From assembly GCA_934277435.1 (NCBI GenBank), contig CAKQUE010000001.1, positions 385,957 to 449,956 on the forward strand: a stretch of 64,000 nt of DNA. Reading direction: 5' to 3'. Positions 3,818 to 45,451 of the stretch are shown piece by piece. The translations under genes and the position numbers were made by a program. Positions within the stretch are counted from its first letter, which is position 1, and every line of letters starts with the position of its first letter. This DNA comes from an uncultured Alphaproteobacteria bacterium (GTDB taxonomy: Bacteria > Pseudomonadota > Alphaproteobacteria > RF32 > CAG-239). Under the pieces are notes generated by a model. It saw nothing but the letters and a program-made list of their open reading frames with translations, did not search any database and was not told the origin of the DNA.

Positions 3818-3835
3818 TCTTTTCTAAACTCATTA

Positions 3836-3925
3836 AGGCGAAGGGACTTAGACCTTGTACAGACCGTTACGGCTGCTTTCTTCCGAACCTGACCGAGTTG
3901 GCGGTTTTCCAACCCTAAGCCCTTC
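3836..3925 (-). ncRNA. ffs: Signal recognition particle RNA (small 4.5S type)
   Basis: Minus-strand transcript contains GGUCAGGUUCGGAAGAAAGCAGCC, matching the conserved SRP domain IV motif. The 5' segment GAAGGGCUUAGGG pairs with the 3' segment CUAAGUCCCUUC. It lies immediately upstream of dnaX, the usual position. Confidence 0.8.
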
Positions 3926-3984
3926 ATTAATAAATACCCTTTCATAATGGGCAAAATTACATATTTTGCAAGCAAAAAATAAAC

Positions 3985-33138: not shown

Positions 33139-33774
33139 CTAAAATGCCCAAATCGCAATGGCGCAAGTGTTGTTTGTACCGCAGTTGCATGCGTTGGCTA
33201 TAGTTGTTATGGGCATATCCTTATTATAGCAAATAGCAAAATCATTGTCTGAAGTTTCGCATTTTGCGGCTGAGGAATATTGGGTATAGCCTGAAATTTT
33301 AGAAGTACTGTTTGGATTGTTTGAACCGGAGGCAACCAAAATAGTTTTGGGACCGCCCAAACCTTTACTCAAAATTTGGATGCAAGCATCGCGGGACAGA
33401 GATTTCAGCTCAACTATAACACCTTTGTCTGTTGGGGTTAAACCATAAAGTTCTTTTGCCGAACCAACTCTAACTTCACCGCCGTAAACGTGAGTAACCT
33501 TGCCGCTGGAGTTAATCATTTCATCTGGAATAATTTTCATTTTTTTTGCAGATGTGTTATTTAAGCCGGTGTATTTACCGCCTTGACGCAACCCGATGCT
33601 TTTGGCGTTGGCAATAATAGTGCCGATTTGTTCAACAATGTTGTTAACCTTGTAGGCGTCCATGGCTTTACTGAAACCATTGATGCCGCCAACGCTCAGC
33701 ACGCCGATAATTGCCAGCACACCCAGCATTTCTATCATTGAACGACCTTGTTCAAATTTATTGATATTCATCAT
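33139..33774 (-). CDS. Type IV pilin (paralog 1)
   Basis: Prepilin leader ...FEQG^RSMIEMLGVLAIIGVLSVGGI with Glu at +5. C-terminal disulfide loop CNCGTNNTC. Confidence 0.8.
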   Translation of the reverse strand: MMNINKFEQGRSMIEMLGVLAIIGVLSVGGINGFSKAMDAYKVNNIVEQIGTIIANAKSIGLRQGGKYTGLNNTSAKKMKIIPDEMINSSGKVTHVYGGEVRVGSAKELYGLTPTDKGVIVELKSLSRDACIQILSKGLGGPKTILVASGSNNPNSTSKISGYTQYSSAAKCETSDNDFAICYNKDMPITTIANACNCGTNNTCAIAIWAF

Positions 33775-33789
33775 TTGCAGAATTCCTTA

Positions 33790-34398
33790 TTAGTTAAATT
33801 TTAAAGCTACAATACAAGAGTTAGAAGATGAGCAGTTGCAGCCTTTTGCTGCGTCAACAGGCGACATTGGGGTTTTCTCTGCCGGTAATATGGCATATTT
33901 TTTAGCAGCATTAATATCTCCAGCACCATCATCAAGTAAATCTGTCTTAAAATTTTGTTTGTCACCAACGCCAATCATTTGGAAAGTAGAACTCTTGGTG
34001 CCCCAATCTTGAGTGGCTAAATAAATACAAGCAACTTTAGGCAGTCCATTATAAGATATTATATATGACATATCTGTAGGTGTAATTTTTATATTTCCGT
34101 GGAATAGATTTGTTAAAGTTCCATTGCTAGCATTGGCAATCGCTTCTTTAGGAATAGCGCCGAATTTGATGGCAGCTTTGTTGTCTAATCCGTCATAAGA
34201 CGCAACTTCGGAACCGACAGCAGAAAGTTTTGCGGCAATAGCGTTGATTTGTTCATAAGTCTGGGTGATTTTATAACGTTCAAGCATTTGCGAAAAGGCG
34301 GCTATGCCCCCCACGCTTAAAACGCCGACAATCGCTAAAACACCAAGCATTTCTATCATAGAACGACCGGTCATATTCGATAATTTATTATAATTCAT
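33790..34398 (-). CDS. Type IV pilin (paralog 2)
   Basis: Same leader, G^RSMIEMLGVLAIVGVLSVGGI. C-terminal CNCSSSNSC. AGGAGG RBS before the ATG at 34398. Confidence 0.8.
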   Translation of the reverse strand: MNYNKLSNMTGRSMIEMLGVLAIVGVLSVGGIAAFSQMLERYKITQTYEQINAIAAKLSAVGSEVASYDGLDNKAAIKFGAIPKEAIANASNGTLTNLFHGNIKITPTDMSYIISYNGLPKVACIYLATQDWGTKSSTFQMIGVGDKQNFKTDLLDDGAGDINAAKKYAILPAEKTPMSPVDAAKGCNCSSSNSCIVALKFN

Positions 34399-34472
34399 AA
34401 TATCCTCCTGTTTGCTATTTTTGTAACACGTATGCAAGCTGGCGTCAAGCTATATTAAGGCGGAGATAAGTA

Positions 34473-40314: not shown

Positions 40315-40974
40315 TCAGTAGTATTTCCACAAAATAGAGCATGTGTTACCTTTATCGCAGTTGCATGCTTTAGCAGCTTGAGTAACTTGCATCGGTACAG
40401 CTAATGTTGTATTTCCTGGCATAGCTATAGAATCACCATCTTCTTTTTTTGCTGAGGCAGAGCCAATATAAACTGTATCCAAGCTGTCATCGCGTGCAGT
40501 TGGAGCAGCAGTTGCTGTGGCATTGCCTTTTACTTCGATAGCAATCAAACCAGAAGAATAGCCAGAACCCCAGTCGTTGGTAGCTAAAGTGATGCAAGCT
40601 TCACGTGATAATTGTGTGAATTCAATTACGAATGCTTTTGTGTCGCCATCCACAGTACTGTCAGCTTCATTGATAAATACAGGACCGTTAAACGCATTTG
40701 TCAGAGTTCCGGCAGTGGCATCTGTAACCAATTCGTCTGGTACAACACCCATAGATACAGCATTGGCATTGTCTAAATCTGTATAAGTATTTTGCTGAGC
40801 ATACAAGGTTTTGATGTTGGCAACCAACATAGAAACATTATCAGAAACTTTATTTGTTTTGAATTTGTTCATAGCTTTTGAATAGCCGGCAATACCACCA
40901 ACAGACAATACACCGATGATGGCCAATACACCCAGCATTTCAATCATGGAACGACCAGATTCATTTACTCTCAT
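40315..40974 (-). CDS. Type IV pilin (paralog 3)
   Basis: Leader MRVNESG^RSMIEMLGVLAIIGVLSVGGI. C-terminal CNCDKGNTC. AGGAGA RBS. Confidence 0.8.
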   Translation of the reverse strand: MRVNESGRSMIEMLGVLAIIGVLSVGGIAGYSKAMNKFKTNKVSDNVSMLVANIKTLYAQQNTYTDLDNANAVSMGVVPDELVTDATAGTLTNAFNGPVFINEADSTVDGDTKAFVIEFTQLSREACITLATNDWGSGYSSGLIAIEVKGNATATAAPTARDDSLDTVYIGSASAKKEDGDSIAMPGNTTLAVPMQVTQAAKACNCDKGNTCSILWKYY

Positions 40975-44486: not shown

Positions 44487-44903
44487 ATGAGCATAGCTAA
44501 CAATTTTAGAACCGTGTTAAAATACGCTCAGAATAAGGAGTGTATGATGGTTGTAGCTGATTCTGACTATATTGTTTTATTGGGTAGTAAAATTGCCAGA
44601 TTGCGTAAAATGCAAGGTTTGAACCAGTTTGAATTTGCTGATAAATGCGGTAAAATGGTTAATACTATTTCTAAAATTGAAAGAGGTATTGGCGATCCGC
44701 GCTTGTCTACACTGATTAATATTGCCGAAGCTTTGAATATTTCAGTAACAGAGCTTTTGGATAGTCATTTTATTAGTCCGGCTATGAGCAGAATGACTGG
44801 TGCAGAAAATGTGGATTCTGCCATTGATGGTCTTTTGTTGCAGTGTGATGATGAAACTAAAGCTGTTGTATTGTCATTGCTGCAGCTGTTGGTGAAAAAA
44901 TAA
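44487..44903 (+). CDS. XRE-family helix-turn-helix transcriptional regulator
   Basis: HTH_3 pattern (LRKMQGLNQFEFADKCGKMVNTISKIERG). The real start is probably an internal Met. Confidence 0.65.
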   Translation: MSIANNFRTVLKYAQNKECMMVVADSDYIVLLGSKIARLRKMQGLNQFEFADKCGKMVNTISKIERGIGDPRLSTLINIAEALNISVTELLDSHFISPAMSRMTGAENVDSAIDGLLLQCDDETKAVVLSLLQLLVKK

Positions 44904-44965
44904 TCAAAGCAATTAATTTTTTTATAACTTTTTTACTCTGTCCCCAACTTTAACGATGAACCAGC

Positions 44966-45242
44966 TTGTGTCAAACCCGCTTTTTCGCGGCTTCTTATCC
45001 CTTGATACTTCACCAACAAAAAAAAGCCACCATAAAGGTGGCTTTACTGTTGGTGAGCTCGGTGGGATTACTCCACTTCGTTTCGTTCACTGCGCTCATA
45101 GGCATTGCCTACCGGCACACTCCCGTGCGCCTTTCGCTTGTGTCAAACCCGCTTTTTCGCGGCTTCTTAGCCCTTGATACTTCACCAACAAAAAAAGCCA
45201 CCATAAAGGTGGCTTTACTGTTGGTGAGCTCGGTGGGATTCG
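44966..45242. repeat. Tandem direct repeat (2 x ~102 bp) containing the tRNA-Lys 3' end plus flank
   Basis: 44966..45068 and 45141..45242 are near-identical. Each ends in tggtgagctcggtgggatt (tRNA 3' end) and carries the hairpin aaagccacc-ataa-ggtggcttt. Confidence 0.85.
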
Positions 45243-45297
45243 AACCCGCGACCCTTTGATTAAAAGTCAAATGCTCTACCGACTGAGCTACGAACTC
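45222..45297 (-). tRNA. tRNA-Lys (anticodon TTT)
   Basis: Hand-folded. Acceptor GAGUUCG/CGAGCUC. Anticodon loop CUUUUAA. T-loop UUCGAAU. CCA encoded. Confidence 0.85.
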
Positions 45298-45451
45298 GCT
45301 TAACGAGTATGCTTATATTAGATAAAATTATGGAAGTCAATAGAAAAAATAAAAAAAGTTAAAAAAAATGAATTTGGTGTTTATTTATTAAGATTTATAT
45401 GTTAGTATTTCATAAAATTTGATGAAAACTTTTGTTTTGTAGAGGTTATGT

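Follow-up and report, generated by a model that had tools for sequence, protein, structure and literature searches.

The duplicated end of a lysine tRNA gene in the genome of an uncultured gut alphaproteobacterium belongs, in our reading, to a family of small, structured, tRNA-linked elements that vary in copy number, an explanation that would replace that of an island scar and to which we give a probability of about 0.6. Duplicated tRNA 3' ends are routinely read as the scars of islands, and here such an end is part of a tiny structured module, termed element E, which recurs behind many tRNA genes with one hairpin adapted to the T stem of each. Literature searches returned no described equivalent of E, and the family appears to be undescribed.

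Architecture of the repeat behind tRNA-Lys(UUU)

The window, by which we mean the whole stretch of 64,000 nucleotides that was analysed, has a G+C content of about 40% and carries the tRNA-Lys(UUU) gene on its minus strand (Table 1), so that 'downstream' of the tRNA means towards lower coordinates. A repeat search of the window describes the direct repeat as two adjoining blocks, D1 and D2, present in a proximal and a distal copy whose starts are 172/171 nt apart and which differ by one substitution (T/G at 44998/45170) and by one extra A in an A-run. In the proximal copy, 19 nt of the tRNA 3' end (45222-45240, tRNA positions 58-76), which begin within the T loop, are followed by 86 nt of trailer, and the copy as a whole thereby takes in the terminator and the 5' part of E; the distal copy holds the second set of tRNA positions 58-76 (45051-45069), the repeated terminator and a second unit of E that is truncated. 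The original prediction of a downstream duplication of the tRNA-Lys 3' end together with its flank is borne out, at 19 nt plus 86 nt and a distance of 172 bp, while the spacer between the two copies, which it had put at 72 bp, measures 66 nt (45070-45135). There is no further occurrence of the repeat or of the 66-nt spacer within the window, and shuffled sequences gave 0 matches.

Both copies of the terminator have the G+C-rich hairpin and U run by which intrinsic terminators are recognised, the proximal one directly after the tRNA. In another species (L021) the two arms of this hairpin change together, and both of its terminator copies share that species' own substitutions, which is the pattern of concerted evolution of repeats. 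The arrangement of the window recurs gap-free in two independent assemblies (L005 and L008) and is therefore not an assembly artefact.

Table 1. Coordinates of features at the tRNA-Lys(UUU) locus of the window
Feature	Position	Strand	Basis or content
tRNA-Lys(UUU)	45222-45297	minus	ARAGORN and Rfam tRNA, 72.6 bits
Proximal repeat copy	45136-45240, 105 nt	minus	repeat search, D1 + D2
Distal repeat copy	44964-45069, 106 nt	minus	repeat search, D1 + D2
tRNA-Lys intrinsic terminator hairpin	45194-45216	minus	AAAGCCACC-TTTAT-GGTGGCTTT, then U run; terminator scan
Second terminator hairpin copy	45023-45045	minus	terminator scan
Complete element E	45070-45189	minus	5' leader, E-left hairpin, three-way-junction core, 3' tail
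E-left hairpin	45145-45166	minus	GAAGCCGC-GAAAAA-GCGGGTTT
E core	45070-45135	minus	alignments A1-A3, RNAalifold, pair counts
Second copy of tRNA positions 58-76	45051-45069	minus	AATCCCACCGAGCTCACCA, directly 3' of E core
Truncated second E unit	44964-45017	minus	leader and E-left hairpin (44973-44994) only
Conserved flank X	44904-44963		60 nt after the XRE-family stop codon

The T arm of the window's tRNA-Lys(UUU) reads GCGGG-TTCGAAT-CCCAC. As a separate observation, its stem (GCGGG/CCCAC) contains a C50.A64 mismatch in the window and at all related loci, the tRNA being identical across every related species examined; the same T-stem strand pairs perfectly, with CCGC, in the E hairpin, unlike in the tRNA itself.

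Anatomy of element E

What had been taken for a spacer forms the core of an element that is conserved, non-coding and about 118-120 nt long, the complete copy of which matches its covariance model at 45069-45174 (120.6 bits, E=7e-29). The 3' arm of its first hairpin, E-left, is the 5' strand of the tRNA-Lys T stem with the start of the T loop, and the 5' arm is the complement of this. Within the core a closing helix P1 (GCG/CGC) is accompanied by hairpin 1 at 45114-45131 (GGCGCAC-GGGA-GTGTGCC), hairpin 2 at 45098-45112, a conserved UGAGCGCAGUG at 45088-45098 and a 3' tail at 45070-45087. In the truncated second unit the core is missing and the remainder is joined to flank X at 44963/44964, leaving a partial match to the covariance model at 44923-45002 (35 bits). 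The window holds one full unit and one that is cut off after the E-left hairpin, and part of what was described as duplicated flank is the 5' part of this next, truncated unit.

One unit consists of the copy of tRNA positions 58-76 with its trailer and terminator, followed by E, and the repeat probably marks the boundary of a 172-bp tandem unit of this kind behind tRNA-Lys. The 3' end of E coincides with the start of the tRNA copy from position 58, and for this reason the core looks, on sequence grounds, as if it had been inserted after T-loop position 58 of a partial second copy of the tRNA.

A consensus fold was predicted with RNAalifold from nine diverse units, giving the T-stem hairpin, hairpins 1 and 2, a small hairpin in the 3' tail and a long-range helix; the trimmed model alignment adds a short closing helix and so yields a three-way junction. 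Hairpin 1 has the consensus GGCRCAC-GGGR-GUGYGCC, and hairpin 2 covaries. When 21 distinct sequences were aligned to the model, 98.1% of cells proved to be paired and both sides had changed in 8 pairs, counts that come from an alignment fitted to the model in which many rows are close relatives. The covariation score of 0.33 compares with 0.126 in shuffles (0/500 reach the observed value) and with at most 0.05 when the partners are slid; the covariation of the first hairpin follows the identity of the tRNA. Several pairs are G.U in most or all sequences when read on the tRNA-sense strand, and since these would be C.A on the opposite strand, the fold is specific to the tRNA-sense strand. Strand-specific helices with compensatory changes are the generic marks of a structured RNA, and by this model-fitted alignment E has them.

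Occurrence of E behind other tRNA genes

A scan of metagenomes with a pattern built on hairpin 1, which biases the family towards close variants, returned 14 loci, one of which (L049) is probably a chance match in G+C-rich coding DNA. By the tRNA identities that ARAGORN assigns, E lies at at least six different tRNA genes (Lys-UUU, Lys-CUU, Pro-CGG, His-GUG, Asn-GUU and Ser-GGA), always in the orientation of the tRNA, and the hosts are related uncultured Alphaproteobacteria. Three tandem units stand behind tRNA-Pro(CGG), and in a more distant species (L034, neighbour protein 79% identical) tRNA-Lys is followed by the same architecture, with 3/5 pairs of hairpin 2 in the spacer changed on both sides. 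The E loci score between 40 and 123 bits, and when the window and 504 kb of fetched loci were searched with the model, E turned up only at tRNA-linked places, the window contributing its full and its truncated copy.

The order of parts is shared by these units. In the direction of the tRNA, the tRNA gene is followed by a trailer with the terminator, a short leader and a hairpin of the E-left type, in which the 3' arm is the 5' strand of that tRNA's own T stem plus TT(C/T) and the 5' arm its complement. There follow the linker GAC-N-ACAAGCGAAA, which is invariant, hairpin 1, hairpin 2, UGAGCGCAGUG and a variable tail, and after these a copy of the tRNA from position 58 to CCA, which is decayed in L039 and truncated after the T stem in L045, and then a copy of the terminator, which comes directly after E except in L041 and L050. 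The left junction of E always follows TT(C/U)GA, and the distance from the end of the tRNA to the E core is constant at 88-96 nt. A script check found the exact cognate 5-nt T-stem 5' strand with TT before the core in 9/10 tRNA-linked loci, the tenth (Lys-CUU) having 4/5 cognate T-stem nucleotides, and the T-arm pieces around each E copy always match the neighbouring tRNA.

The neighbours of the E copies are housekeeping genes (LptF/G, T2SSE, DacC, FabH, Na/H exchanger and DHO dehydrogenase), and no integrase, transposase or reverse transcriptase was found among them. The original prediction treated the material between the repeats as what is left of an island; the same conserved structured core is also found behind tRNA-Pro, -His, -Ser, -Asn and -Lys(CUU), where no recombinase accompanies it, and this speaks against that origin. 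Its other suggestion, a very small integrated element, comes close to what is there, namely E.

Some observations on variants stand apart from this account. A type-2 core, with a longer closing helix (GGAU/AUCC), is present in L039, L041, L045 and L050, the helix in the last of these being GGCU/AGCC, a compensatory change. In L041 this type-2 core lies alone among housekeeping genes, with no tRNA upstream. A second structured-looking module of about 170 nt, module M, occurs in tRNA orientation at L039:11320-11447 and L045:780-1010, where it is placed after the copied T-stem strand, at the point at which the E core normally starts; its motifs include GACGACAGGCGAAGG and CCGAGUGACCGAAGC. A search of Rfam 15 with E and module M matched only the tRNA, all other matches being far below gathering scores; the strongest of those that overlap E (SpF41, 34 bits) rests on the tRNA and terminator.

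Alleles at the tRNA-Lys locus

A token map of 27 contigs, running from the tRNA to the fixed flank X, distinguishes at least eight structural alleles among conspecific contigs, with 0, 1 or 2 cores. The core is lacking and only an E-left remnant is left in L006 and L019, and in L004 and L018 with an extra 12-bp deletion; one core with an E-left remnant is found in the window, L002, L005, L008, L010 and L014; one core is joined directly to a sequence Y in L003, L012, L013 and L022; one core is followed by a decaying 19-mer, a flank F2 and Y in L015 and L016; and two cores are present in L017, L020, L023 and L044. Short-read assemblies are the source of the copy numbers, and in L002, L010, L017, L021, L023 and L044 the array is interrupted by N gaps or by the end of a contig; several of the arrays were assembled without gaps, and the differences between alleles are therefore not all artefacts. 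The size polymorphism that the original prediction expected at this locus among isolates is in this way seen among conspecific metagenome contigs.

No virgin site was found among the alleles of this species, all of which keep at least the E-left remnant, and it is because of this remnant that the 'empty' alleles are taken to descend from E-bearing ancestors. Truncation or loss of E is frequent within the species, a pattern more in keeping with a dispensable or selfish element than with an essential RNA.

Islands at the tRNA-Lys gene

The tRNA-Lys gene is also an integration site for islands, as had been foreseen: two occupied states, with islands of 17.65 kb and 22.2 kb, and a decayed remnant are present in conspecific contigs, and with their differing contents these contigs show both the islands and the size polymorphism that were expected. 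The 17.65-kb island lies at tRNA-Lys in L013, L015 and L020 (L009 being part of the same contig as L020) and encodes a tyrosine integrase of 391 aa with Arm-DNA-bind_3 and Phage_integrase domains, together with DUF3800, RhuM, resolvases and variable defence cargo, which is BREX in L015, a methyltransferase system (RM) in L013 and an SNF2/STAND helicase in L020. The junction on its distal side is formed by 50 nt that repeat the 3' half of the tRNA, anticodon arm through CCA; at the proximal end the island gives the intact tRNA a new terminator, and GTAGCACCG repeats are found at both ends. The 22.2-kb island (L014 and L001, which form one contig) carries a large serine recombinase of 552 aa and a type I RM system and is bounded by the 9-nt TTGGTGAGC, which corresponds to the last 8 nt of the tRNA plus one. 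In these alleles (L013-L015 and L020) the 172-bp unit is on the chromosomal side of the island.

The 19-nt boundary of the repeat is used by neither of the islands seen, and as their junctions are of 50 nt and 9 nt, the 19-nt-bounded repeat is not their footprint, a result that removes the basis for regarding the repeat as the attL/attR pair of an excised or decayed island. Decay of an island does explain well a different remnant, that of L046, where flank F2 and a tyrosine-recombinase fragment of 66 aa come after the duplicated tRNA end; a shorter version of this remnant, F2 and then Y, is kept in L015, L016, L020 and L023. The real tRNA and its duplicated 3' end both serve as attachment sites for islands, the duplicated end having been reused in L046 and L015.

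Several features of the islands were noted in passing. In L013, L015 and L020 (at 12.7-21.7 kb), the tyrosine-integrase island has a constant int-DUF3800 head and a cargo that is swapped between strains, with resolvase genes at the swap points. The ORF of the large serine recombinase (L001:3194-4852) crosses the island junction and the tRNA-Lys gene in antisense. At another tRNA that bears E, the tRNA-Ser(GGA) of L047, a close relative carries an island (L051:115-2383) that starts with a 696-aa DUF6538/Phage_integrase protein, and E-bearing tRNAs are accordingly targets of islands elsewhere too.

Origin and spread of the element

The alleles and repeats described above suggest how E could vary in number. 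Unequal homologous recombination between the 105-nt repeats would change the copy number to 0, 1, 2 or more cores, a step supported by the species-specific substitutions that both repeat copies of L021 have in common, and the 'empty' alleles would have arisen from E-bearing ones. The element itself would act as, or be made from, a strand-specific folded nucleic acid, the simplest form of which would be an RNA read in the direction of the tRNA and ended by the duplicated terminator. New tRNA genes might be reached by recombination at the near-universal T-loop GTTCGA, with a trans-acting function for the spread encoded elsewhere and not next to E, and the intact tRNA may be preserved by prior duplication, by the copying of positions 58-76 with the terminator, or by the integration of a small circle through homology.

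A more specific version of this account is offered tentatively, and we think it somewhat unlikely as it stands: E could represent a new class of non-coding element that homes to the T loops of tRNA genes, where the module would land after position 58, carry or create the hairpin complementary to the T stem, and leave the tRNA intact by duplicating positions 58-76 and the terminator. If this were true, the mechanism would be mediated by RNA or by a single strand and would not be that of a classical integrase with sequence-specific arm sites; candidates would be a cDNA of an E-containing pre-tRNA that recombines with the gene, and a nuclease or recombinase that acts in trans with the flanking 19 nt as its guide. 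Searches for circular junctions, for an empty/filled pair at a non-Lys tRNA and for a partner enzyme found none. When an empty site was sought for the E copy at tRNA-Ser, the closest relative (neighbour protein 94% identical) proved to have an integrase island at that tRNA instead, and more distant relatives are without the tRNA at this place.

E might instead be a family of host non-coding RNA genes that derive from the 3' halves of tRNAs, for example as mimics of the T arm and acceptor end, and that were selected and duplicated with the terminator without being mobile or selfish. The strand-specific, covarying structure with its conserved single-stranded linkers, the fixed tRNA orientation and the terminator copy that, outside the two exceptions named, comes directly after each core all agree with such an origin, as does the predicted fold of a single-unit RNA from the window (-45 kcal/mol, z = -2.3). 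It is nonetheless an unlikely explanation to our minds, given that loss, truncation and amplification of E all occur between strains of a single species, that sister species at 87-89% protein identity are without E, that the same core behind different tRNAs requires movement or repeated capture, and that a promoter scan of the window found no convincing promoter in front of E.

A decayed integrative element seems to us slightly less probable still. According to this explanation, a tyrosine-integrase element with its crossover in the T loop brought its own positions 58-76 and subsequently lost its interior, so that attL and attR remained with 150 bp of arm DNA between them. In its favour, intact islands and the L046 remnant (F2 and the 66-aa integrase fragment) prove the locus to be a hot spot, and the last copy of positions 58-76 in L015, L016, L020 and L023 precedes the different flank F2 and is decaying, as would be expected of a displaced original 3' end. 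The T loop is a known crossover sublocation for integrases, and it is there that the repeat starts. Against this, the deletion junction (E-left hairpin, then GAC-N-ACAAGCGAAAGG) is identical in every copy at six tRNA genes, and because independent decay would not give one contiguous junction at all six, a decaying island does not explain E. Moreover, no copy is adjoined by the body of an element or by an integrase, the supposed arm DNA folds into covarying helices, and the hairpin arms match the T stem of each tRNA, a behaviour not to be expected of sequence-specific arm sites.

Plain local tandem duplication by replication slippage, with no element involved, would account for tandem repeats of varying copy number and for an 8-nt microhomology (AATCCCAC) between the tRNA and the L003 junction, and is nevertheless very improbable, as the stretch of 66 nt that separates the copies bears no relation to the tRNA body and is found again, in the same arrangement, behind further tRNA genes of other organisms.

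Further candidate identities were considered and rejected. The spacer is not a decayed tRNA, being unlike the tRNA body and called by neither ARAGORN nor Rfam. By eye the E leader resembled the decayed 5' part of the cognate tRNA (His, Asn and Lys); local alignment with cognate and non-cognate tRNAs and with shuffles showed nothing significant (p = 0.05-0.64), the cognate tRNA usually not being the best match. A hammerhead core (CUGAUGAG...CGAAAC) has no Rfam match, and since 'CUGA' covaries within hairpin 2, E does not contain one. The likeness to the 5' region of tmRNA (GGNUUCGAC...GCGAAA) is matched by no Rfam model, and the boxes of integron attC core sites fit at only 5-6/7 positions. A full-length parent element was sought around L041 and other copies, which have only housekeeping neighbours, and E is absent from phage, plasmid and viral-contig collections.

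Comparison with known systems

The family of tRNA-linked elements that we prefer as the explanation shares features with several known systems. With the attL/attR duplications of islands and with CIMEs it has in common the direct repeat of a tRNA 3' end (positions 58-76, at 45051-45069 in the window) with the intact gene on one side, a hot spot with tandem accretion, and the reuse of the duplicated 3' end (L046 and L015). It differs in that only 66 nt separate the repeats in the window, with no integration genes or remnants of them, that different tRNA loci share the inserted DNA, a module of about 118 nt with a conserved structure, and that the repeat also covers the terminator and has junctions unlike those of the occupying islands. 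CIMEs keep attL and attR and are without integration genes (PMC5704250); under this definition the likeness is a formal one, consisting of two tRNA 3'-end copies without genes between them, and the origin by decay does not apply, as the copies of E at six tRNA genes are contiguous and lack any gene remnant, whereas the F2 remnant of L046, unlike E, does have an integrase fragment.

Like MITEs and the palindrome-associated elements derived from IS200/IS605, E is short, non-coding and rich in hairpins and occupies multiple sites. MITEs differ in their terminal inverted repeats and short target duplications, which E lacks; its ends are not complementary, and the only inverted repeats at E in the window are the terminator and the internal hairpins. 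The constant left junction after a pentanucleotide, TT(C/U)GA, recalls a miniature derived from IS200/IS605, while a comparison with such elements or with a TnpB guide-RNA-like unit shows the hairpins of E to be dissimilar and situated towards the left end, with no transposase within the window. In contrast to MITE-type elements in general, E is strictly oriented with the tRNA, has a long copy of the 3' end of its target as a flank, has one hairpin made of target sequence and has no transposase partner that we could find.

Pseudo-tRNAs such as tRNA-Other of Bacillus cereus (PMC3399842) offer a further parallel, as both are tRNA-derived and non-translational, lie beside an island attachment site and are possibly expressed. 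E keeps only pieces of the T arm and the acceptor 3' end, has a foreign three-way-junction core in the T loop, and occurs in tandem and behind several tRNA species.

Implications

Should E prove to be mobile, it would represent a new way to colonise tRNA genes without destroying them; since the duplicated end does receive islands, it would in addition supply these with further attachment sites. As an RNA gene, E would instead define an unannotated family of tRNA-derived RNAs in abundant uncultured gut Alphaproteobacteria. Arrays of E break short-read assemblies and vary between strains, and could therefore serve as strain markers.

Genomic neighbourhood and flank X

The proteins that flank the locus have identical copies on hundreds of human-gut metagenome contigs. 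Beyond the 3' end of the tRNA, to the left, are an ABC-F protein and an XRE-family HTH gene (44487-44903, plus strand; Pfam HTH_3); beyond its 5' end, to the right, are a 106-aa protein, a 561-aa membrane protein, two Proton_antipo_M proteins, BirA and RNase J. The large ORFs of the window include neither an integrase nor a transposase or reverse transcriptase. On the 5' side of the tRNA the row of genes (106-aa, 561-aa, two Proton_antipo_M, birA, rnj) is constant in all tRNA-bearing relatives examined, and the 3' side varies by species, with an L7/L12 operon in L024-L028, an ankyrin protein in L029, LptF/G in L034 and, without the tRNA, MatE in L035 and L036. The tRNA is thus a real breakpoint, as proposed, on its 3' side, while the 5' side with the nuoLMN-like genes, on which the proposal had rested, is constant; nuoLMN-like genes without nuoA-K were read as a sign of the break, and this row is conserved beside the tRNA with no indication that nuoA-K were lost here.

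The boundary of flank X is fixed across alleles and its partner sequence varies. At least five different sequences are joined to this boundary (GGTTCATCG..., window 44948-44963) in different strains, and some alleles (L011, L017 and L044) have a tandem 18-nt near-copy, GTTCATCGTCAAATTCG and then GGTTCATCGTTAAAG. Where the direct repeat has its distal end (window 44964-44975), strains are polymorphic for an indel of 12 bp (AGCTTGTGTCAA) flanked by AACC repeats, as seen in comparison with L002, L004 and L018. A promoter-like site with 10/12 matches lies on the minus strand (window 44947-44974), formed by TTGACA from the truncated element's hairpin and TAAAGT from flank X, and is directed antisense into the 3' end of the XRE gene.

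Elsewhere, the window contains three PilS/bundlin-type pilin genes (33139-34437 and 40315-40974); the pilin near tRNA-Arg varies from 219 to 235 aa among conspecific contigs, and a pilin gene also follows the decayed integrase fragment in L046. An EptA-like phosphoethanolamine transferase (L011-L020, at about 3.3-3.8 kb) is intact at 535 aa in L020 and split or truncated in other conspecific contigs. A bacterial small SRP RNA is encoded on the minus strand at 3834-3928 of the window (60.7 bits).
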